The notes: generated by a model not told the origin, from the sequence alone. Shown: positions 54,132 through 64,000, numbered from the stretch's first letter. The stretch is DNA of 64,000 nucleotides from Deltaproteobacteria bacterium (GCA_021162935.1 JAGGXR010000063.1:10043-74042); one strand, 5' to 3'. Translations and numbers: made by a program.

Positions 54132-55430
54132 GTGCTGATGCATTCGAGTCCATGGTTCATGTCCTTTTTCAGTTCATTCCTCGATGGTGATGCTGTTCCA
54201 TGTGGATTGGGGAGTGCCGGCCGGCGGCCTGTCCGGTTCGTCTCGGGATTCTTTGCCGCCAGTCTTGGTTTGGCGGTCCTCCTCCATGGTGCTTCTGCGG
54301 CGGCCGCGCCGTATCACGGTCACTGGCGATCCGGGCAGGTACGACTTGTTCTGCGACCGAACGGAACCTACGTCTTCGGAAACGGACATGGTACCTATGT
54401 GGCGCGAAACGGATTTTTGTTCTTTCGTGCGCCTCGGGTGACCGGGCTGACGCCTTATCGTTATTGGGTGCAGGGCGGTCGACTCAGGCTGCAGGCGGCC
54501 AATGCCGCCTATTTGGACTTCGTGCGGGTGGGGGCGAGCCAAGTAGCGCCGACTTCATCTGCGGCCGTGTCGCCCGTTCAGGGCGCGGGGACGGGTAGGG
54601 TGCTGGCTCGGGCACCGACAGGAGAGCAGTTGACCGATCGGGACGTATCCGTGGGCTTGGCGACTCTCGAGTTCATGATCCACGGAACCCTCACCGGAAC
54701 GGAACGGCGGCTGCTCAAGGGTGCAGCCATCCTTGATTTCAAGGCTCATCCTGTCGTGCAGGTGCAGGGCTATCGCACGTTAGCGGCAAGCCTTGCCAGG
54801 ATTCGGTCCATGACCAATCCCCTCAGGGTTGGACTCTTGCGCCAGGCGCTGCTGGTCACCTTTTACCGCCAGATGCTGGCTGTGAAGTCTCACATCCTTC
54901 CGCCTTTCGTGCGCGTCCTGTTTCATCGGGTTCGGGAGCTCGCGTTCGATGCGGCCAACGGACTGCTTGTGACCTCCAATGATGTGGACGCATACCTGGC
55001 TTATCTGAGCTTTTTGTATCAGTTGGCCTTCCACAAACAGGTCGCCTTTTCGCGACGGGATCACCGCAAAATAGAGCGGGCGCTGCGGGCCAGATTTGCG
55101 AAAATGACAGTGGGGCAGAGGAGGTCTTTGTGCAGCATGTCGTTTTTCTGGGATCATTTTCGACAGTCATGGCGCAGGGCCACGGCTGGTCAGCGTCTCG
55201 CCTTTGCTCGTCGAGTCGTTGCTCGGATGGGCGGGCGTCGCCCTGCCGCAGGTCGATCGCGTTATCGCACCAGGATTGCTCCTCGGTATCGGCGCAGACG
55301 CCGTGGTCACATGAATCAGTCCACGTACAGCACGTTGGTCCATGTCTTGAACAACGATTACGTGGGCACCATGAACGCCATCAACACGGGTTTCGGCTCG
55401 CCCTATCGTTATCACGTCAAGTACTACTGA
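54132..55430 (+). CDS. Hypothetical secreted protein
   Basis: 432-aa ORF with an N-terminal hydrophobic signal-like segment (FFAASLGLAVLLHGASAAAAP) and an Arg-rich C-terminal region. No recognisable domain. Start uncertain. Confidence 0.4.
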   Translation: MLMHSSPWFMSFFSSFLDGDAVPCGLGSAGRRPVRFVSGFFAASLGLAVLLHGASAAAAPYHGHWRSGQVRLVLRPNGTYVFGNGHGTYVARNGFLFFRAPRVTGLTPYRYWVQGGRLRLQAANAAYLDFVRVGASQVAPTSSAAVSPVQGAGTGRVLARAPTGEQLTDRDVSVGLATLEFMIHGTLTGTERRLLKGAAILDFKAHPVVQVQGYRTLAASLARIRSMTNPLRVGLLRQALLVTFYRQMLAVKSHILPPFVRVLFHRVRELAFDAANGLLVTSNDVDAYLAYLSFLYQLAFHKQVAFSRRDHRKIERALRARFAKMTVGQRRSLCSMSFFWDHFRQSWRRATAGQRLAFARRVVARMGGRRPAAGRSRYRTRIAPRYRRRRRGHMNQSTYSTLVHVLNNDYVGTMNAINTGFGSPYRYHVKYY

Positions 55431-55435
55431 ATCCA

Positions 55436-55730
55436 CGACTTCCCCCAAATCCAGGGATCAAAATCAGGATTCCATTATAATTCTGTCTGGATAGGTCTGC
55501 CCACAAGTGAAAATGGGGGATTTCCATACGAGACAAAATGGACCTCCAGTTGGTAAGGAAAGGGGGTTGAACGCCTTATTTTCCTTTGCCAAGACAAGAA
55601 GGTCCATGCCCATGGCACATCGAATCGGTTGGAAATTACGAGCACAAATCGACACTCCGGGCATTTAGATGGGGAGGCTTGTCCTGGCCGGCATAGAAGG
55701 TCAAAATAGGACCGGCCGGACGCGGGGTAG
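55436..55730 (+). repeat. 295-bp low-GC direct repeat, copy 1 (family R3)
   Basis: About 93% identical to 58597-58890. Begins 6 bp after the stop of the preceding gene. GC content is well below the local average. Internal short ORFs differ by indels between copies, so it is non-coding. Confidence 0.8.
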
Positions 55731-55739
55731 GAGGTATTG

Positions 55740-56182
55740 TCAAATCTGGTGTATAGCCGCCTCGGTCGTACCCTGTGATAAGTTTTCTACGCGTTCGCCA
55801 TCTTTGAATTTCACTCCGTCGACTACATCGGCCAAAAGCTTGTGGCCCCGGAGTCGTCGCCATTTGTTCTGCGCCGTCTCCATCAATTTCCAGGCCATCG
55901 CCTGGCAAGCCAATGTGCTCCCTGTATTCCCAGATCCAGCCACTCCATGATTCCCTGCATTTGGTGCCAGGCAGCTCTCTGCAAAAGAGTTCCAAATGAT
56001 ACATAGGCTCCGTGGCTCGCGCATTGTCCATGTTCCAGGCATCTGTGTATCAGGTTGTTGTCGTTTAGGGTGTCGAGCCACAGCAGGGGCGATGCTCCGT
56101 GACGTTTGAGCATGGCAATAACTGCAGCCAGGAACACAAACATGTCCATGAGGATTCTAATGCGTGGGTTCGAATGTTTCAC
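55740..56182 (-). pseudogene. Probable insertion-sequence/transposase remnant
   Basis: Low-GC segment with two overlapping short minus-strand ORFs in different frames (...KWRRLRGHKLLADVVDGVKFKDG... and ...MEWLDLGIQGAHWLARRW...). Frame-shifted and fragmentary. Family not identified. Confidence 0.3.
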
Positions 56183-56307
56183 CGAGCCTCCAATGGCAAG
56201 GCTAATGGTGTGGAAGAAGTCATGTCAACGTGAATCTGGAATGAGTCTGACAATTGGACTATGGTCTTGCGGTAAGCTTGTTGGAGACAGGAGCGATTTT
56301 CGAAGCT

Positions 56308-56556
56308 ATGGAAAGCACCGCACATGAGAAGCGTCAATGGGTCAGACTGACTTACGCATGCAATAACAAGTGCGTTTTTTGTCATGACAGCATTGTGCAA
56401 AGCGGCGAGATGGTACCCCGTGAAATCCTGGAAAAGGAGATATCAGAAGGCCAGGACCAGGATTGTCGCGCGGCCGAGATCTGCAAGCGCTTCAGACGAT
56501 GCGCGGCACGAGAGGCAACCTGCGTGGCTTCGGAACCGGACGATCCGTCACAGTAG
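56308..56556 (+). pseudogene. N-terminal fragment (82 aa) of a radical SAM enzyme
   Basis: WVRLTYACNNKCVFCHD carries the CxxxCxxC motif. The ORF stops after about 60 further residues where it abuts the convergent pectate-lyase-like gene. GC is about 50%. Confidence 0.5.
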
Positions 56557-58443
56557 AGAGTTTATGTAGATTTCAATATTATGGTAACTTTGGTGCGCGG
56601 GTACATGGTGAGCATCCTCGGGATCATTCTTGTCCAATCCATGCGCAGTCTCCCAGACGTCGGGCATGCCATCGTGGTCCGTGTCGATGGGTGCTGTGCC
56701 GGATGCGTAGGGAATGGGCCAGGTAGCGGTTGACTTGGATTCATCATCAATCCACCTGTAGGGAGGGCCTGGTTCCGTCGTTTGATGAGAATACTGATCG
56801 ATCGCCTCGAGGTCGACAGAATCTCTCGGCCAGGCGCCGATGTTCTTCTGTCCTACATAAGCACCTCTGGACAGCATCCAATCGGTGGCAATCGCCAAGG
56901 GAAGAACCGTTGTCTCTGCAGCAGGTTTGGCAAATGGATAGGATGTCGTCATCATGCTGGGATCACTGGGACCAACATTGCACAGAGCACTCGCGCCCGT
57001 TGGGTATGGGTCCACGGCACAAAACACGAACGATTGCGGTTGCGAGTCGGATGTTCGTTTGGGCGTGATGTTGCTGCTCAGGAAGATCTTCGAGCCAGCA
57101 TTGACCCATGTCCCATTGCCCCGATCTTCCGTTTGGAAAATCAACGCTGATGCGCCCGCAGACGCGTCTGTTACTGGAGAATTGTTGTCAGGTCCGAGAT
57201 ATATCTCATTGTTAATGAAGACCGCCAAGGAAGGCCCGGCCACGAAGCCTTCAATGTCGCTATTCTGGGAGCCAGCAACTTCTGTGGAGCCCCATCCAGT
57301 ATTGTATGCGAGGTTGTTGATCACCTCCACATAGGAAGCTGGTTCCAACCCGATGACCCCAACGGCGCTACCACCGCCGCCCATTCTTGGGTTCCTACGT
57401 TTGGAATGCACATATAGATTCCGTGCAGCCGTAACATATTTGGCCCCGCAGCCAATGAGCAAGCTTCTCGCTGCCGCGTTCGTATCGCCGGATGGATACT
57501 CCAGGGGCTCAAAGAAGATGTTGTTGGTCGCACTGAGATTCTGAGCATTGTAGTAACCAAGTGTAAGCAACTTCCCGGTGCTCCAACTGAAGCTACAATG
57601 ATCGACAATGGCATTGCGCATTGTGTGCTTGGGGTTCTCATAGGCACCAATAATGCTTAGAGACCCTGCTCCCTGCTGAAAAGGATTGTTCCCAGATCTG
57701 AATCTGAGACCCCTGATGATAAGTTCTTCGACGTCATAGACATCTAGATCATGATAATCGTAATTGGGGTATTCTCCGGATGGGGATCGCGTGCCAGCAC
57801 CAAAGGATATCCCTCCATTGGTTAGACAAATTCCGTCCCCAGGAGCCGTCTGTCCAGCAATGGTCAAGTAGCCGGTGTAGCTATATATAGGTGGCGAATC
57901 TGAATGATCTGGACGAAATCTCCAGAAAGCACCCAGGTTGATGATACCACCCGTATCAAATACGATGATTCTTGGATATTTCTCTCTCAGTGCCCAGAGG
58001 AACGAACCCGAGTAGCCATTGCCGTCATCCACATAATGCGAGCTGAGCGTGTTGACATGCAGGACCTTCGGCAAGTCGGCTGGATCGTTGGACGATTCGT
58101 ACTTCGCGTACGCGCCCCTCGTCTGAGCGCCAAACCCTTCGGCGCCAGGAAAGGCGAGGGCTGGGCCTGTCTGGCCTGCGTCGGCGGAATCGCCGTCCGC
58201 ACTCGCATCCTGCACCGTGCTCGCATCCTGCGCGGCGTCCGCGTCCTGCACCGTGCTCGCATCGTGCGCGGCGTCCGCGCTCGAGTCGGAGCATGCCGCG
58301 GGGACGAGGCCCGTCCCCAAGAGAAGCGCACCAACCATACCCGTCGCCATGCGGGCCGCCACACTCTGCCGAGCGTGGAACCGTGACTGCGCTTCCCGAT
58401 GTTCTTGCTTTCGACAACGGGATTCGGAGAAAGTCGTCTTCAT
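56548..58443 (-). CDS. Secreted pectate-lyase-like right-handed beta-helix lipoprotein with C-terminal calcium-binding (thrombospondin-type-3-like) repeats
   Basis: Signal peptide plus lipobox LLGTGLVPAAC (an alternative ATG is at 58350). Mature N-terminus ALAFPGAEGFGAQTRG is typical of pectate lyases. Beta-helix repeat patterns. C-terminus IDTDHDGMPDVWETAHGLDKNDPED. Confidence 0.6.
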   Translation of the reverse strand: MKTTFSESRCRKQEHREAQSRFHARQSVAARMATGMVGALLLGTGLVPAACSDSSADAAHDASTVQDADAAQDASTVQDASADGDSADAGQTGPALAFPGAEGFGAQTRGAYAKYESSNDPADLPKVLHVNTLSSHYVDDGNGYSGSFLWALREKYPRIIVFDTGGIINLGAFWRFRPDHSDSPPIYSYTGYLTIAGQTAPGDGICLTNGGISFGAGTRSPSGEYPNYDYHDLDVYDVEELIIRGLRFRSGNNPFQQGAGSLSIIGAYENPKHTMRNAIVDHCSFSWSTGKLLTLGYYNAQNLSATNNIFFEPLEYPSGDTNAAARSLLIGCGAKYVTAARNLYVHSKRRNPRMGGGGSAVGVIGLEPASYVEVINNLAYNTGWGSTEVAGSQNSDIEGFVAGPSLAVFINNEIYLGPDNNSPVTDASAGASALIFQTEDRGNGTWVNAGSKIFLSSNITPKRTSDSQPQSFVFCAVDPYPTGASALCNVGPSDPSMMTTSYPFAKPAAETTVLPLAIATDWMLSRGAYVGQKNIGAWPRDSVDLEAIDQYSHQTTEPGPPYRWIDDESKSTATWPIPYASGTAPIDTDHDGMPDVWETAHGLDKNDPEDAHHVPAHQSYHNIEIYINSLL

Positions 58444-58596
58444 GATGCCCCCTACACTCCATGAGAAAATTGATGGATTCGTAAAAAGTCGGATTTTTTC
58501 AAGTAACTGAAACAATTGATTAAGTTCTCATTTTTGCTTGACATGATATCTTGCTTGTAGCACATTTATTTCATGATTTCAATTCATTACAGGACA

Positions 58597-58890
58597 GAAC
58601 TTCCCCCAAATCCAGAGATCAAAAACAGGATTCGATTGTAATTCTGTCTGGATAGGTCTGCCCACAAGTGAAAATGGGGGATTTCCATACGAGACAAAAT
58701 GGACCTCCAGGTGGTAAGGAAAGGGTGTTAACGCCTTATATCCCTTTGCCAAGACAAGAAGGTCCATGCCCTTGGTGCATCGAATCGGTTGGAAATTACG
58801 AGCACAAATCGACACTCCGGGCATTTAGATGGGGAGGCTTGTCCTGGCCGGCATAGAAGGTCAAAATAGGACCGGCCGGGCGCGGGGTAG
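58597..58890 (+). repeat. 295-bp low-GC direct repeat, copy 2 (family R3), abutting a hairpin and the transposase gene
   Basis: Paralog of 55436-55730. Its last 22 nt plus the following sequence form the inverted repeat ggaccggccgggcgc...gcgcccggccggaggtcc (58869-58922), immediately before the transposase ATG. Confidence 0.8.
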
Positions 58891-58926
58891 TAGCCCCATG
58901 GTTTGCGCCCGGCCGGAGGTCCAAAC

Positions 58927-60012
58927 ATGCTTTCTCTACCCCGTCTCGGTGTGCCCTGCAAGATCGTGGACCTGAAGCCACCCGAAGTCGCGCGATGTCC
59001 GCGATGCAGTGCATGGTCCCCACGTAACGAGATTCGTTTTCGCTACTTATGGGAGCCAGACCTGCTTCATCCAAGCGTCGTCGAACTGGAAGCAGGGGGC
59101 TACTTGTGCCCGGATTGTCCTGAGGGGAGGAAGTGGTTCATGCTGCTGCCGGAGGACTACAAGACGAGCGGCCAGTACAGCGTGCTGGCGCGATTGCTGG
59201 TCGTCGAGTTGGTGCGCGACTACAAGATGTCGGCGGAGCAGGCCGCTGCCTGGGGTCGAGACAAGCTCCATCTGGCGAAGCTTGATGCGAGCACAGTGCT
59301 CGATTGGTTTCGCGAGGCCGGCGACCGGCGAGAGTTTCTCATCCCCTGGACGAAAGATGAGCGCGTGCGTTACCTGGTGCGGCAACGAGGGCACCGGCAT
59401 CTGTTGTACAAGGGAAAGCTCAAAAGCGGCAAGGCGTTGGCCGAAATCTGCAAGACGCCGTATGGCGAGACGATCGTCAAGGAGAAGGACGGCGAGGAAA
59501 AGGCGTGCTTCGTCCACGTCGGCTTCCTCCCGGTTCGTCTGCCGGAGTGTCCCCGACGGCCTTTATGGCTGGTGGTGGCGAAGGGGTTCGGCGAGGAGCC
59601 GATGATGCTTCTGACGACCGAGCCGATGCGACGGTACGGCAAGGTTCTGTGGTGGGCGGTGGCTGCATATCTGACGCGCTGGCGGGTGGATGACACGATC
59701 CTGTTCATCAAACAGAGCTACGGCTTGGAAAACGTGCGCGTGCTGACCTACCGGCGTCTCAAAAACCTGGTGACCTTACTGCTGGCGGTGGCGTATTTTA
59801 CGGCTGTGCGCGTAGGCCTGAACGCGAGGTTGAAAATCTTGGCCCTACATGTGCTGGACGCAGCCAAACGCCTGTTCGGGATTCCCGACTTTCGGTACTA
59901 TGCTTTGTCCGATGGCATGAAGGACATTCTGCACAAAACGGGAAAAGGGACCTTGCACGCACGAAACGAGAAAATTGTATCTGACCCGCAACTCTCCCTA
60001 TTCGATCCCTGA
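58927..60012 (+). CDS. IS4/IS5-superfamily-like DDE transposase (short form, N-terminal Cys4 zinc finger)
   Basis: C-terminal YLTRWRVDDTILFIKQSYGLENVRV...LLLAVAYF matches the Y-x2-R-W-x-I-E-E-F-x-K / LE / IAW signature (YREK region) of IS4/IS5 transposases, but with the first Glu replaced by Asp. N-terminus has CPRC...CPDC. ATG at 58927. Confidence 0.5.
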   Translation: MLSLPRLGVPCKIVDLKPPEVARCPRCSAWSPRNEIRFRYLWEPDLLHPSVVELEAGGYLCPDCPEGRKWFMLLPEDYKTSGQYSVLARLLVVELVRDYKMSAEQAAAWGRDKLHLAKLDASTVLDWFREAGDRREFLIPWTKDERVRYLVRQRGHRHLLYKGKLKSGKALAEICKTPYGETIVKEKDGEEKACFVHVGFLPVRLPECPRRPLWLVVAKGFGEEPMMLLTTEPMRRYGKVLWWAVAAYLTRWRVDDTILFIKQSYGLENVRVLTYRRLKNLVTLLLAVAYFTAVRVGLNARLKILALHVLDAAKRLFGIPDFRYYALSDGMKDILHKTGKGTLHARNEKIVSDPQLSLFDP

Positions 60013-60132
60013 ATTTTTTTTTGGAAGTCCTGCTACTAAATCGGGTCTATTTCCGGTGACTGTTGGCGGTCGTGGTCCTTGGCAGGTGGCGGTCGCTGTC
60101 TTTCTGTTTGTCCGGGGCGAGGCGTCTGGGGT

Positions 60133-61383
60133 CTATTCGAGCACCAGGCTTGCCGGTCCATGTTGCTGCCCGCTGGCGTCGAATACGTACAGATACGCGG
60201 TATCTGCAGCCTGGAACGAGCCTTCGTTCAGCGTAAAGGTGATGGAGCCGTTGCTCCACTGCGTGGCGATCTGCACCTCCAGGTGCCGGCAGTCGTCGTA
60301 GTTCGGCGCGTCTCCGAGGACCACCCGGGCGAAGGTTCCGTCGAGGTAGATGCCACCGTATTGACGATAGAAGACGGATCCGGATTCGTCGAATCCGTAG
60401 TTGCCGCCAAATCGGATGTTGTCGAAGTATTCATTGGGCGTGGATTCTGAATCGTACACGTCGATGTGTTGGACGCGAAAGATGCGCTGATTGTCGATGC
60501 GAAGCTCCATGGAGCCGTCGAAGGTTTTCGGAGCGGAATTGAGGCGGTAGAACAGTTCCACGTGATACCAGCGTCCAATGGGCAGGGCGTAGCTAGACGT
60601 CCAACTCAAAGGTCTGCCATAGAATCCGCCGCCGCCTGGGATATCCAGGTTGGCGTTTTGTTCGTCGTTGGTGTCCCCTGCGATACCGCCCAGGGCGCTG
60701 CAGAGCAGGTCTGTACCGTCATTGATGATCTGCATGGCCTCGTGCGGATTCTGGCCGGGGCTCATGTAGATCCATTTGAAGTTGGCCGCACCGGTCGCCA
60801 TGTGGCTCGCTTCGAATCCCGGCTCGAAGTAGTCCCACCAGGACAGATAGAGGACCTTCGATTCGGGCAGGTTCGTCTGGACGCCGGCGCTGTAGCCGCC
60901 AGCCTCCCAGTTGCCGCGGGCGCTGTACTCGAGTCGAGCATAATATTGCTGCGATGCGCGCCCCTTGACCCTGGAGTCAGGTAGGTCATCGGCCAGATTG
61001 ACCATGATGTCTGCTGCTCCCAGGCTCCAATAGCGGTCGTCGAATGCGCCCATTTCCTGGAATCGTTGGGCCTGGTCCGGATGCTGGTACGAGGCACGAA
61101 ACGGCGCAGCCGGATCCTTTTGTCCGAATCCGCTGCCCGAAACGACGACGGACGAACCATGGATCAGGTCGCCGGTGACCGTGAGGGTGCCGTTCGTGTT
61201 CGTGCCGGAGTCAGCCTGCGAACCGGCGTCCCAGTTTTCGTTGTTCTGGTTCGACTGGTGGTCGTCATCGGAGCAGGCGGTGACGAGCATGGCCAGGAGC
61301 AAGGATGCGCAGAGCCATGGTCTGTTACCAATGAGAGGTTCGGATAGCAAAGATGCAGGCAGTAGGGATGCCGGAATGATCAT
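60133..61383 (-). CDS. Secreted lipoprotein, concanavalin/LamG-like; possible polysaccharide lyase or glycan-binding protein
   Basis: Lipobox LLAMLVTACSDD. Asn/Ser/Thr-rich linker. C-terminal region is paralogous to the next gene (…WIDG/RIDN…NxRFGGNYG / FFENYWNSG). Start uncertain (61383 or 61422). Confidence 0.45.
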   Translation of the reverse strand: MIIPASLLPASLLSEPLIGNRPWLCASLLLAMLVTACSDDDHQSNQNNENWDAGSQADSGTNTNGTLTVTGDLIHGSSVVVSGSGFGQKDPAAPFRASYQHPDQAQRFQEMGAFDDRYWSLGAADIMVNLADDLPDSRVKGRASQQYYARLEYSARGNWEAGGYSAGVQTNLPESKVLYLSWWDYFEPGFEASHMATGAANFKWIYMSPGQNPHEAMQIINDGTDLLCSALGGIAGDTNDEQNANLDIPGGGGFYGRPLSWTSSYALPIGRWYHVELFYRLNSAPKTFDGSMELRIDNQRIFRVQHIDVYDSESTPNEYFDNIRFGGNYGFDESGSVFYRQYGGIYLDGTFARVVLGDAPNYDDCRHLEVQIATQWSNGSITFTLNEGSFQAADTAYLYVFDASGQQHGPASLVLE

Positions 61384-61451
61384 CGATTTTGGTTGAGCGA
61401 TTGGTCTGGTGGCCCATTGCATGTTTCTTTCTCCACCTCGTTTGTGGGTTT

Positions 61452-62546
61452 TTACAGACACCCGATGGGTTGGGTCGAGACGACGATGTTGTCGAAGTAT
61501 CGTTCTTGCTCGACCGGGGATCCGCTATTCCAGTAGTTCTCGAAGAACACCGCGTTGAGCGCGTAGTCCGTGTAGGTCCCTACGAAATTGAGGTGATCCC
61601 GTCTTGCTTCGAGGTTTCCGTCGATCCAAAATTCCTGGACGCCGTTGCTTTGGCCCGGGTCGTTGAGTTTGACATGCGCTTCGATGCAGTACCAGGTGCC
61701 CGAATGATTCGTGGCGAAGATCGGGGTCGTGCCAGCCAGGTTGCCGAGCCATTGGAGGTGACTGAAGTCGTTGTAGCCCTGGCATTGCACGTTCCCATTT
61801 CCGTCCACGCAACTGGCCGGGTCGATGAGCAGGTAATCGCCCTGACTCCACAGGTGCGCGATCATCGCCTGGGACCAATCACTCGATGACGCGAACACCG
61901 TGGCCCGGGATAGCTTGGCTGGGCTGCCCTGCCATCCTGGCTGGTTGCGCAGGTACATGCGATAGTAAATCTCGCGAAAGTCCTCGTTGGATCGGATGCC
62001 CTTGTCCATGTAGGACTGCGGGTTGCGTCCGAACGCGAGCTTGACGCCACCGGCACCCACCTCGCCGGCTTGCCACTTGATTTTCAGGCCACGCGTATTG
62101 CTGTATCCGACTCCATTCGTCACGACGCAGTCGCCATTGTTGTTGTCGTATTCGAAGTAGCGACCTTGGCCCACGAGTGGATCGGTGCTTTCGAAATCGT
62201 CGCAGAAAATCCATGCAGGATGGTTGGCCTGCCAATTTTGGCATTCGGCCGCGTTGACGCCTCCATCGGATCCGGGACTCGCGTCCGCACCGGCGTTCGC
62301 ATCGGATCCAGCGTTTGCATCGCTGTTCGTTTGCGCGTCCTTTTTCGAATTTCCATCCTTTGTTGCGTTGCCGTCATTGCTCTGGTTCGCATCCATGCGG
62401 GACCCGGTATCCAAAGCAGCGTCTGCGTGCGACGATCCCGCCTTGTCAGGGCAGCCAGCCATGGTCAAAGCCAAGGTTGACGCCAATAGAGCTGTCCCCA
62501 TGTGCAGGAATACCTCCAAAGATATCACTGCCTGTTTTTTTTCCAT
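61452..62546 (-). CDS. Secreted lipoprotein, paralog of the preceding gene, with a low-complexity Ala/Asp/Asn/Ser linker
   Basis: Start at the ATG at 62546 (MEKKQAVISLEVFLHMGTALLASTLALTMAGC lipobox). Linker DANAGSDANAGADASPGSDGG. C-terminal domain aligns with 60133-61383. Confidence 0.45.
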   Translation of the reverse strand: MEKKQAVISLEVFLHMGTALLASTLALTMAGCPDKAGSSHADAALDTGSRMDANQSNDGNATKDGNSKKDAQTNSDANAGSDANAGADASPGSDGGVNAAECQNWQANHPAWIFCDDFESTDPLVGQGRYFEYDNNNGDCVVTNGVGYSNTRGLKIKWQAGEVGAGGVKLAFGRNPQSYMDKGIRSNEDFREIYYRMYLRNQPGWQGSPAKLSRATVFASSSDWSQAMIAHLWSQGDYLLIDPASCVDGNGNVQCQGYNDFSHLQWLGNLAGTTPIFATNHSGTWYCIEAHVKLNDPGQSNGVQEFWIDGNLEARRDHLNFVGTYTDYALNAVFFENYWNSGSPVEQERYFDNIVVSTQPIGCL

Positions 62547-62581
62547 GTGGTTTCTTGTCATTGCTCGATATCCCTCCCATT

Positions 62582-64000
62582 TCACTTCGAATCAGGTAAA
62601 AAAAATGGCCACAGGCCAATGTTGACCTTGGTGGCATTCTTGTAGACCGAAGGGTCACCGGTATTCAGGCAAGGCGATCCGGCCAATGGTTTGTACTGGT
62701 CGGATGCATCCAGGGATGGATTTGCCTCCAGCGAATGCGTTTCGCCTGCGTAGGAGGCTCGGTATGTGTCGAGGGTCAAGGGATGGTCGCCGCTGCCGGT
62801 CCAATCGACTCGTGCCACGATGGAGTCGTCCACGTGGAACACGTTGAAGTCGGAATCGAATCCGCGGTTCAAGAACCAATCCGGCCAACGTTTCTCGCCC
62901 GCCGAGTTATTGAAGTAGATCCCCACCCCCGAGCCGATGAACGCGTTGTTGCGGACCATCTGGCCCACGGACCATTGGGACACGTGGATGCCGTGTTTGC
63001 AGTCGATGAACAAGTTATTGAACACGCGGCTTCCGTATTCATTCGACGAGTCTTCGTTGGACGCGTACGCGATGCCCGACCCGCAGCGTTCCAGGATGTT
63101 TTCGCGGATCGTCCAGTTGCCCCCCGGGTAGGTGTGACCCTCGTCGCCCTCTCCGTCGCAGCCCTTCCAGTTGCATCGTGGCCCTGGCGGTTGGATGCAT
63201 TGGCCTACGTCGTGGATCCAGTTGCCCACTACGTGGAGGTTGGATACGCCGCCTTTTGTCGTGATGCCTCCATTGAGCATGCCCCAAACTTCGTTTGAGC
63301 AGGCCCACAGGTCGGCCTCGTCGCCCGACACCATGAACGTGATACCTTTGGAGTTGGACCCGTTGCCGCCCCAATAGCGGGAATCGTGGGCCAGGTTGCG
63401 TCGAACCATCACGCCCTGGCTGTACGCGATGAAAATGCTGTAGGAGTTGTCGTCTCCGTTGGCGTTGTGTCCGAAATCATTGTCCTGCACGAGCAGGTAG
63501 TCTGACCCTTCGAAGTGACTGGCCGAAGGTTGGGTGTATCGGAAGGTCAGACCCTCCATCACCATGTACGGACAGCCGATGGCGCTCAGGAACTGGCCCT
63601 GAGAAGCCTCGAAAGTCGCCTGGGTCATGTCCATCCCGGCTGGCGGGCGAATGTACAGGAAGCAGCCCTGGTTGTCCCGGCCGCACCCGGTCCCTGAATC
63701 GTCGGCCTTGGTCCAGGTTCCGGGGTCCATCACGTCCGACGTGTTCGCATGGGACCGCACGCCGTTGCGCATCTCCATGACGTGGATGATGCGGGTTTCG
63801 TCCGTGGTCCACAACCCAGTGGGATCGAACTCCAGAAACTCGGCGCTCGTGCGCCACAAGCCGTTGCCAGCGTCCTGCCAGACTCCGGCGGCAATGGGCA
63901 CCGAACCAATCAGCACGGGCATTGCCCCCTCGTCGGCACGGATCAGGAAGTAGGCGTCGGCCGTGCCCGGTCGGCTCAGGTGGATGCGGCTTTTCCCCTC
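62582..64000 (-). CDS. Right-handed parallel beta-helix (pectin-lyase-fold) protein; N-terminus lies outside the window
   Basis: No stop between 63922 and the window edge in this frame. PbH1-like repeats (NNAFIGSGVGIYFNNS, HVVGNWIHDVG, NNLFIDCKHGIHV). Stop overlaps the next gene start region. Confidence 0.6.
   Translation of the reverse strand, partial: EGKSRIHLSRPGTADAYFLIRADEGAMPVLIGSVPIAAGVWQDAGNGLWRTSAEFLEFDPTGLWTTDETRIIHVMEMRNGVRSHANTSDVMDPGTWTKADDSGTGCGRDNQGCFLYIRPPAGMDMTQATFEASQGQFLSAIGCPYMVMEGLTFRYTQPSASHFEGSDYLLVQDNDFGHNANGDDNSYSIFIAYSQGVMVRRNLAHDSRYWGGNGSNSKGITFMVSGDEADLWACSNEVWGMLNGGITTKGGVSNLHVVGNWIHDVGQCIQPPGPRCNWKGCDGEGDEGHTYPGGNWTIRENILERCGSGIAYASNEDSSNEYGSRVFNNLFIDCKHGIHVSQWSVGQMVRNNAFIGSGVGIYFNNSAGEKRWPDWFLNRGFDSDFNVFHVDDSIVARVDWTGSGDHPLTLDTYRASYAGETHSLEANPSLDASDQYKPLAGSPCLNTGDPSVYKNATKVNIGLWPFFLPDSK

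Follow-up and report, generated by a model that had tools for sequence, protein, structure and literature searches.

A 64,000-nucleotide stretch of DNA from a Deltaproteobacteria bacterium (GCA_021162935.1; hereafter the window) contains, between positions 55436 and 60012, two direct repeats of about 295 bp that bracket a pectate-lyase-like gene. The locus raises the question of what the repeats are, and of whether the DNA between them came in together with them. The original prediction, made from the sequence of the window, read the locus as the product of serial insertion and decay of mobile DNA, and this is borne out by the nested insertion sequence (IS) ends described below. Our overall reading, which we hold with considerable confidence, is that nested and decayed IS ends surround the pectate-lyase gene and that the block probably represents one arrival. 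What is new here is limited to further representatives of IS families already known and to a pectate-lyase gene that was plausibly carried in by ISs; nothing points to a new kind of element, and what is known of transposition mechanisms is unchanged by these findings.

Two direct copies of a 295-bp unit

Repeat finding, MAFFT alignment and BLASTN are concordant in giving two direct copies, copy A at 55436/8-55730 and copy B at 58597/9-58890, with a copy-to-copy spacing of 3160/3161 bp; no third copy is found within the 64-kb window. The two are 95.6% identical over 293 columns (12 mismatches and one 1-nt gap), slightly above the approximately 93% given when they were first noticed. Their guanine-plus-cytosine (GC) content is indeed low, at 0.50 for both copies versus 0.587 for the window, and their similarity ends directly 3′ of GCGGGGTAG, in agreement with the predicted point of divergence right after ...gcggggtag. 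The possibility that the unit is a conserved peptide gene was rejected: the 1-nt indel between the copies shifts every open reading frame (ORF) on both strands, and the coding part amounts to 13 N-terminal codons of an IS4 transposase at most.

A repeat-induced misjoin in this metagenome-assembled genome was considered as the source of the arrangement. Several JGI contigs (L004, L005, L009 and L010) break inside the repeat, as would suit such an artefact, but the independent assemblies L007, L008 and L011 hold both copies in the order seen in the window. L007 (ENA) covers the entire block plus both flanks, L008 reaches the first ~270 bp past copy B, and L011 (JGI) extends from the left flank to a point within copy B; all three come from other samples or assemblies and are 99.8-99.9% identical to the window. 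Since the order of features recurs in contigs of other samples and assemblies, the repeat is not a misassembly. The 13 differing positions also make the copies resolvable, and we regard an artefact as having a negligible chance of being the explanation.

In L007 and L008, whose overall identity to the window is 99.8%, all 8 differences within 55300-60200 fall in a 67-bp patch of copy B (58711-58777), where every change is to the copy A state. Gene conversion between the repeats would leave such a tract, and so would read-mixing in assembly; the latter could be cited on the side of an artefact.

Two layers within the repeat

The unit is made up of parts of two elements: an IS4-family element and, nested in it, an ISL3-like element that is called X below. 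Their parts in the window, together with the sequences that flank the outer ends, are as follows (IRL and IRR, left and right terminal inverted repeats).

55424-55433, plus strand: left copy of the putative target duplication, CTACTGAATC; holds the TGA stop of ORF 54132-55430 and abuts the IRL tip of copy A
55434-55650, plus strand: IS4-family left end of copy A, with IRL CACGACTTCCCCCAAATCC, leader, internal IRR-like motif (55507-55527) and 13 codons (55612-55650, MAHRIGWKLRAQI)
55651-55730, plus strand: start of X in copy A, 80 bp, with left terminal repeat GACACTCCGGGCA, truncated at 55730; homology to contig L002 begins exactly here
58595-58810, plus strand: IS4-family left end of copy B, with IRL CAGAACTTCCCCCAAATCC, leader, internal IRR-like motif (58668-58688) and 13 codons (58772-58810)
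58811-59325, plus strand: 5′ part of X in copy B, with left terminal repeat, hairpin-bearing leader (hairpin at 58876-58920) and ~133 codons from the ATG at 58927 onward
59320-59325, plus strand: deletion junction, GGCGAC, present both in X (..GCT GGC GAC ACG.., as in L003) and in the IS4-type gene (..GGC GGC GAC CGG.., as in L006)
59326-60032, plus strand: 3′ part of the IS4-family element, with codons ~189-420 of the transposase gene (terminated at 60010-60012), then a degenerate right terminal repeat (60013-60032, ..TTTGGAAGTCCTG)
60033-60042, plus strand: right copy of the putative target duplication, CTACTAAATC; abuts the IRR end at 60032

The first layer was recognized by BLASTN, in which positions 58641-58728, inside the repeat, are 87% identical to L006:2869-2957, just 5′ of the gene for a full-length, 420-aa PF01609 transposase (P0005). 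Both window copies were then aligned with the left ends of seven full-length relatives (L006 and L015-L020). Copies A and B share with these the IRL (ATGRASTTCCCCCA in the relatives, CACGACTTCCCCC and CAGAACTTCCCCC in the window), a conserved leader, a ribosome-binding site and codons 1-13 (M-x-H-x-I-G-x-K-L-R-A-Q-I), although the start codon of copy B is mutated to TTG. Similarity to the relatives is lost exactly past 55650 and 58810. At the latter point, homology between the window and L002 begins, exactly at 58811; the left inverted repeat of X begins with GACACTCC, and the junction of the two layers reads CAAATC followed by GACACTCC. By these alignments, the repeat unit is composed of ~216 bp of an IS4-type left end and the first 80 bp of the left end of X. 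The suggestion that the repeat might be the conserved left end or leader of an IS holds for the first ~216 bp, which belong to the IS whose transposase gene continues, with its 3′ half, after copy B; the remaining 80 bp are those of X.

A different interpretation would make the 295-bp unit a functional non-coding RNA or regulatory leader, such as an IS-encoded guide, a bridge-like RNA or a member of a small-RNA family. On either strand the predicted fold of the unit is more stable than that of shuffled sequence (z -3.7 and -3.8), a transposase-like ORF lies downstream of it, and its IS4-type leader, with an internal copy of a terminal repeat, is strongly conserved among relatives. Equal stability on the two strands, however, is what DNA inverted repeats give, and the X leader has no conserved structure across its family. 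No Rfam match was obtained for the whole window at the gathering threshold, and at E <= 5 the sole match in 55000-60500 is a chance microRNA outside the repeat. Furthermore, the unit splits at 58810/58811 into the ends of two unrelated ISs that are found separately elsewhere. Occurrence of the repeat away from any transposase had been proposed as a means of refuting its origin in mobile DNA; the only two copies in the window are both joined to IS debris. An RNA function is thus extremely improbable. The 295-bp repeat is a two-layer IS scar with no function of its own, and it should be masked as IS ends rather than mined as a candidate RNA or regulatory element.

The IS4-family element

The full-length relatives of the outer element are 1458-1459 bp long, encode a 420-aa DDE transposase and are flanked by target duplications of 8-11 bp (TCGGATTTAC, 10 bp, at L018; GTGTCTCATAA, 11 bp, at L019; TCTGATAAT, 9 bp, at L020; ATTAAATG, 8 bp, at L006). 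P0005 scores 36.1 bits against PF01609, whose cut-off is 23, and nearly all of the 120 matches listed for the window ORF 58903-60012 carry a precomputed PF01609 domain. The YREK box is complete in P0005 and P0025 (YLTRWRVEDTIRF[VI]K) and reads YLTRWRVEDTIRFVK in full-length relatives, whereas that of the window (59665-59709) reads YLTRWRVDDTILFIK, with Asp in place of the catalytic Glu. The right end in the window agrees, over its last 10 nt, with the reverse-complemented IRL at 9 of 10 positions.

The IS4 family is defined by a Y(2)R(3)E(6)K signature, terminal inverted repeats and a target duplication of ~10 bp, or one helical turn (PMC2266710). The element fits this definition, with a single-ORF PF01609 transposase, a full YREK signature in the relatives, short terminal repeats and ~10-bp duplications; among the subgroups of De Palmenaer et al. 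2008 (PMC2266710), its overall features bring it closest to ISH8 and IS4Sa. Its length of 1.46 kb is likewise in keeping with the family, as are the 5′-CA tips of the window copies; the relatives differ in having 5′-ATG tips. The NCBIfam IS4 equivalogs are not reached, the scores being 43.2 bits versus 152 for transpos_IS4_2 and 41.9 versus 160 for transpos_IS4_3. Because these scores lie far below the equivalog cut-offs, we regard the element as an uncurated lineage and assign it to a divergent branch within the IS4/IS701 superfamily. A pattern scan with the IS4-type left end over a genome collection that does not include the window's own genome returned only two copies, both in one Myxococcota metagenome-assembled genome. 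The window copy itself is a dead remnant, in which the N-terminal ~186 residues of the transposase are gone and the catalytic Glu is changed to Asp.

A feature that sets this lineage apart from the family is a conserved internal copy of the right terminal repeat within the left end, in right-end orientation (GTGAAAATGGGGGATTTCCAT, versus the IRR consensus TGAAAAATGGGGGAACTCCAT). All full-length relatives (L006 and L015-L020) have its end at a distance of 94-95 bp from the tip of the IRL, and it could be a second transposase-binding site or make the left end a built-in 95-bp mini-element.

Two further observations concern this element. An outward-facing, sigma-70-like match lies on the minus strand of both left ends, from 58664 to 58635 in copy B (TGGGCA-18-TACAAT) and from 55503 to 55474 in copy A (TGGGCA-18-TATAAT); that of copy B faces the pectate-lyase start codon at 58515, and the hexamers are not conserved in L006. 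In addition, the flanks of L015 and L017 are reciprocal, the left flank of L015 (GGGTACAATC) being the right flank of L017 and the right flank of L015 (GAAAGGGTTTT) being the left flank of L017, which suggests two copies around short spacers, or else a tandem or circular form.

The ISL3-like element X

Copy B carries 430 bp more of X past the end of the repeat, and its whole X portion (58811-59325) is 75% identical to L002 and 95% identical to L001 and L003. The encoded N-terminus contains a zinc ribbon (CxxC, 36 residues, CxxC); the residues after this align to the helix-turn-helix part of transposases of the ISL3 type. The fragment in the window ends before the DDE_Tnp_ISL3 domain. In a word-indexed protein database, the N-terminal 135 residues found three relatives only, all of them fragments, and direct profile searches with the N-terminal part of the window ORF and with the C-terminal piece of L001 gave no matches. 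An exhaustive HMMER search with an N-terminal profile returned 23 matches among 1.84 billion cluster representatives. Some of these proteins are 449-464 aa long, and it is on such full-length relatives that the classification of X rests. Five of them exceed the Pfam DDE_Tnp_ISL3 cut-off of 23 bits (P0134, 46.7; P0135, 32.6; P0139, 31.9; P0127, 29.1; P0132, 28.5). The relatives also align end to end with NCBIfam transpos_ISL3, although below its cut-off (at best 79.7 bits, for P0139, versus 180).

A metagenome scan with the X protein profile located 54 loci. Terminal inverted repeats starting with GACACTCCTG or GAGACTCCTG (GASACTCCTG) occur at approximately 15-17 of the 34 loci examined, the elements there beginning and ending in this way; for 12 elements the two ends could both be defined, giving lengths of 1.6-1.7 kb. 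Members of the ISL3 family have terminal inverted repeats and generate 8-bp target duplications. Clean 8-bp duplications flank two of the 12 (gatagaca at L034 and cctcttcg at L035) and none of the other 10, many of which lie on contigs little longer than the element. X is not specific for the target hit here, the copies in L002 and at the metagenomic loci lying in unrelated flanks.

In summary, X shares with the ISL3 family a length of ~1.65 kb, a ~450-aa transposase with a two-CxxC zinc ribbon, a helix-turn-helix-aligning segment and DDE_Tnp_ISL3, a C-terminal N..ER.NR..RKRQ motif and, at part of the loci examined, terminal inverted repeats, with 8-bp duplications at two of them. It differs in falling below the transpos_ISL3 cut-off, with comparably weak matches to IS256 and MULE models, in its GASACTCCTG termini and in being rare. 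Of X, the window retains no more than the initial 515 bp in copy B and 80 bp in copy A; its right end is absent, and tblastn with X-family proteins matches the window at 58927-59385 only. We conclude that X is a real, rare, ISL3-like IS of ~1.65 kb, which by its alignment boundaries is inserted at codon 13/14 of the IS4 transposase gene. Two uncurated IS lineages are thereby defined: a 1.46-kb IS4-family group with an internal right-end copy, and a rare, ~1.65-kb ISL3-like group with GASACTCCTG termini.

The hairpin that had been noticed after copy B exists, at 58876-58920, and belongs to the X leader. It is common to the window and L002 but is not conserved across the X family: RNAalifold on six leaders gives -0.24 kcal/mol, essentially no consensus structure. 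A metagenome pattern scan with the X leader returned 0 matches.

A second remnant of X, 95% identical to that of the window, lies in the same metagenome at L001 2660-3434, in an unrelated context, where a GH123 gene and one for an oxidoreductase flank it. This remnant is 5′-truncated, the break being marked by a tandem duplication of 28 bp; it also has an 11-bp duplication and a large internal deletion, and it retains a recognisable right end, ...CCCGGGAGTGTT.

The chimeric reading frame that follows copy B

ORF 58903-60012 (369 aa, J7M25_07910) is annotated as a 'hypothetical protein'; it has no Pfam match, and in NCBIfam only a weak C-terminal IS4/IS701 signal. The homology search returned more than 1000 proteins of ~420 aa with PF01609, whose alignments are confined to the last ~63% of the query. 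In BLASTP, residues 136-369 align with residues 187-419 of P0005 at 78% identity, whereas residues 1-135 are unrelated to P0005 and match X-family proteins only. Given that full-length relatives of X pass DDE_Tnp_ISL3 and align with transpos_ISL3, the N-terminus of the ORF comes from the second, ISL3-like element. Comparison of the window with L003 and L006 places the switch from X to IS4, in frame, at the 6-bp GGCGAC. This junction is that of a microhomology deletion, which removed the rest of X together with the first ~188 IS4 codons.

The comparisons thus make ORF 58903-60012 a dead in-frame chimera, composed of an ISL3-like N-terminus and the last 234 codons of an IS4-type transposase; it lacks the region of the first catalytic Asp, in addition to the substitution of the catalytic Glu. 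The prediction of an IS4/IS5-like transposase at this place applies to the C-terminal 63%, which are IS4-like, and not to the gene as a whole, and J7M25_07910 should be annotated as a fusion of two transposase fragments.

The segment between the copies

The bracketed segment, 55731-58596, is 2.87 kb long and contains the following.

55740 to ~56200, minus strand: C-terminal remnant of an IS256-family transposase, frameshifted (tblastn versus plasmids, E 3e-9)
56254-56556, plus strand: short ORF of 100 aa whose product contains CxxxCxxC (YACNNKCVFC) and may be the N-terminal piece of a radical SAM enzyme
56548-58515, minus strand: intact gene of 655 aa for a pectate-lyase-like secreted protein; putative cargo

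The frameshifted IS-like remnant that had been predicted is of the IS256 family. The tblastn matches lie under features annotated 'IS256 family transposase', and the C-terminal ~60-90 residues match these at up to 55% identity. The remnant departs from intact members of the family in being a frameshifted fragment of ~460 bp, with its reading split over three frames, undefined ends and no match to profile hidden Markov models: its two ORFs find nothing in Pfam (including Transposase_mut, PF00872) at E <= 1 or in NCBIfam (transpos_IS256) at E <= 0.1. The corresponding blastn search versus plasmids likewise gave no match. The 3′ end of the remnant abuts the truncation point of copy A; beyond its 80 bp of X, copy A is replaced by this IS256-family remnant.

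For the radical SAM fragment, predicted at 82 aa, an ORF with the expected cysteine box is present, but the assignment is weak (Pfam Radical_SAM E 0.059; several NCBIfam models at E 0.007-0.07). The predicted pectate-lyase-like gene is present and intact, its product matching PDB 9buj, 'Pectate lyase', at E 1.8e-15 and NCBIfam PelZ at E 5.6e-16, the latter far below the cut-off. A GC and codon profile had been suggested as a check, and the GC content of its third codon positions (GC3), 0.579, is the lowest among the 34 long ORFs listed for the window (the others being 0.59-0.78), which fits a foreign origin. Within this gene, 58204-58275 consists of three 18-bp-spaced tandem repeats, which encode D-A-S-T-V-Q-D-A units in the N-terminal linker.

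One insertion or several

With the element tips fixed by the IS4-type family alignment, the sequences that abut the two outer ends of the block, CTACTGAATC before 55434 and CTACTAAATC after 60032, are alike at 9 of 10 positions. Among random position pairs in the window, a duplication of this kind (n = 8-11, at most one mismatch) occurs with a chance of 9e-4, and the left flank of the copy B IRL has no matching duplication partner. Because the 10-bp duplication flanks the outer ends, 55434-60032 can be treated as one entry, and we favor, with moderate confidence, the view that these 4.6 kb entered in a single transposition event, as a compound transposon. The original prediction had preferred serial events to one intact transposon; the decay on which it insisted is evident, while the pairing of 55434 with 60032 suggests that the block was probably once a single unit.

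Such an event could have come about as follows. An IS4-family element was hit, after transposase codon 13, by the ~1.65-kb X, and two directly oriented copies of the resulting IS4::X would have come to surround the pectate-lyase gene as a compound transposon. With both transposase genes already disrupted, an intact IS4-type copy would have mobilised the unit in trans. The 4.6-kb block would then have landed in the spacer between two convergent genes and decayed in place, the site before insertion having read ...AAGTACTACTGAATC joined directly to GGGTCTATTTCCGG....

Several points weigh against a single event. Neither the contigs nor the metagenome and genome pattern scans contain an empty site or a second composite copy; the comparison with relatives that had been suggested for this segment yielded six contigs with the upstream neighbour, all of which have the filled site as in the window or break in the repeat. 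The claim is carried by one duplication of 9/10. Both IS copies already hold X, so that transposase would be needed in trans, and IS4-family enzymes such as those of Tn5 and Tn10 prefer to act in cis. Finally, the pectate-lyase gene stands beside other polysaccharide-lyase-like genes and could therefore be native rather than cargo.

The last point leads to an explanation in which two independent IS4-type insertions flank a native pectate-lyase gene, with X having inserted twice at the same nucleotide or having been spread by gene conversion, and with the duplication arising by chance. The neighbouring PL14-like and Beta_helix/NosD genes would suit a native cluster, gene-conversion-like exchange between the copies is observed, and the duplication is imperfect. 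However, a match of this kind has the low chance probability given above, copy B lacks a duplication partner on its left, and X has no specificity that would bring it twice to this target. There is neither a right end for copy A nor any other remnant of either element in the window, where tblastn with the IS4-type and X proteins found nothing further; moreover, the supposedly native gene is the compositional outlier of the window. We consider independent insertions quite unlikely.

A Campbell-type integration deserves more weight, though we still think it rather unlikely. Here, a single IS4::X would have inserted and made the duplication, and a 3.16-kb circular or incoming DNA would later have integrated by homologous recombination in the shared segment, its donor having held a homologous 295-bp IS4::X left end along with the IS256 remnant, the radical SAM fragment and the pectate-lyase gene. 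The period of 3160/3161 bp and the sharing of exactly one segment by both copies are what a single crossover leaves, the 4.4% divergence of the copies fits recombination between diverged alleles, and the patch in L007 and L008 shows, or mimics, ongoing exchange between them. The outer target duplication is accounted for as well. On the other hand, the donor must already have carried the IS4::X left end fused to the cargo, which presupposes a compound-type structure elsewhere, and the data do not separate this course from transposition of the whole unit.

On the single-event view that we favor, the overall architecture is the textbook one of a compound transposon whose IS repeats are direct, here in a decayed state. 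Like Tn9 with its IS1 copies, or the pseudo-compound and translocatable units of the IS26 type, it has two IS copies in the same orientation around a gene unrelated to transposition and a target duplication at the outer ends, and its direct repeats permit loop-out and re-integration by homologous recombination. It differs from these in that both IS copies are inactivated by the same nested insertion, that copy A is a stump of 295-297 bp, that no second instance or empty site shows mobility, and that the cargo is the gene of a carbohydrate-active enzyme and not a resistance gene. That IS-bounded DNA brought the pectate-lyase gene here is plausible, though unproven. More speculatively, and with little likelihood in our estimate, a trans-mobilised compound transposon may have moved the pectate-lyase gene between genomes of uncultivated Myxococcota/'Deltaproteobacteria', with the fusion ORF kept as a DNA-binding regulator or transposition inhibitor instead of persisting as a neutral pseudogene. 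If true, this block would illustrate how ISs can spread the genes of carbohydrate-active enzymes.

Insertion site and neighbourhood

The block sits exactly at the stop of ORF 54132-55430, in a spacer of ~100 bp between two convergent genes. This upstream neighbour (432 aa, J7M25_07900) is an orphan, without a Pfam or NCBIfam match; a search of 5.8 billion sequences returned only itself. After the block, three consecutive genes for secreted proteins lie on the minus strand (60133-63922), one of them with a Polysaccharide lyase 14-like region below the Pfam cut-off and one with Beta_helix/NosD. Since these downstream secreted-protein genes carry lyase-like and Beta_helix regions, the IS block lies at the edge of a polysaccharide-degradation cluster.

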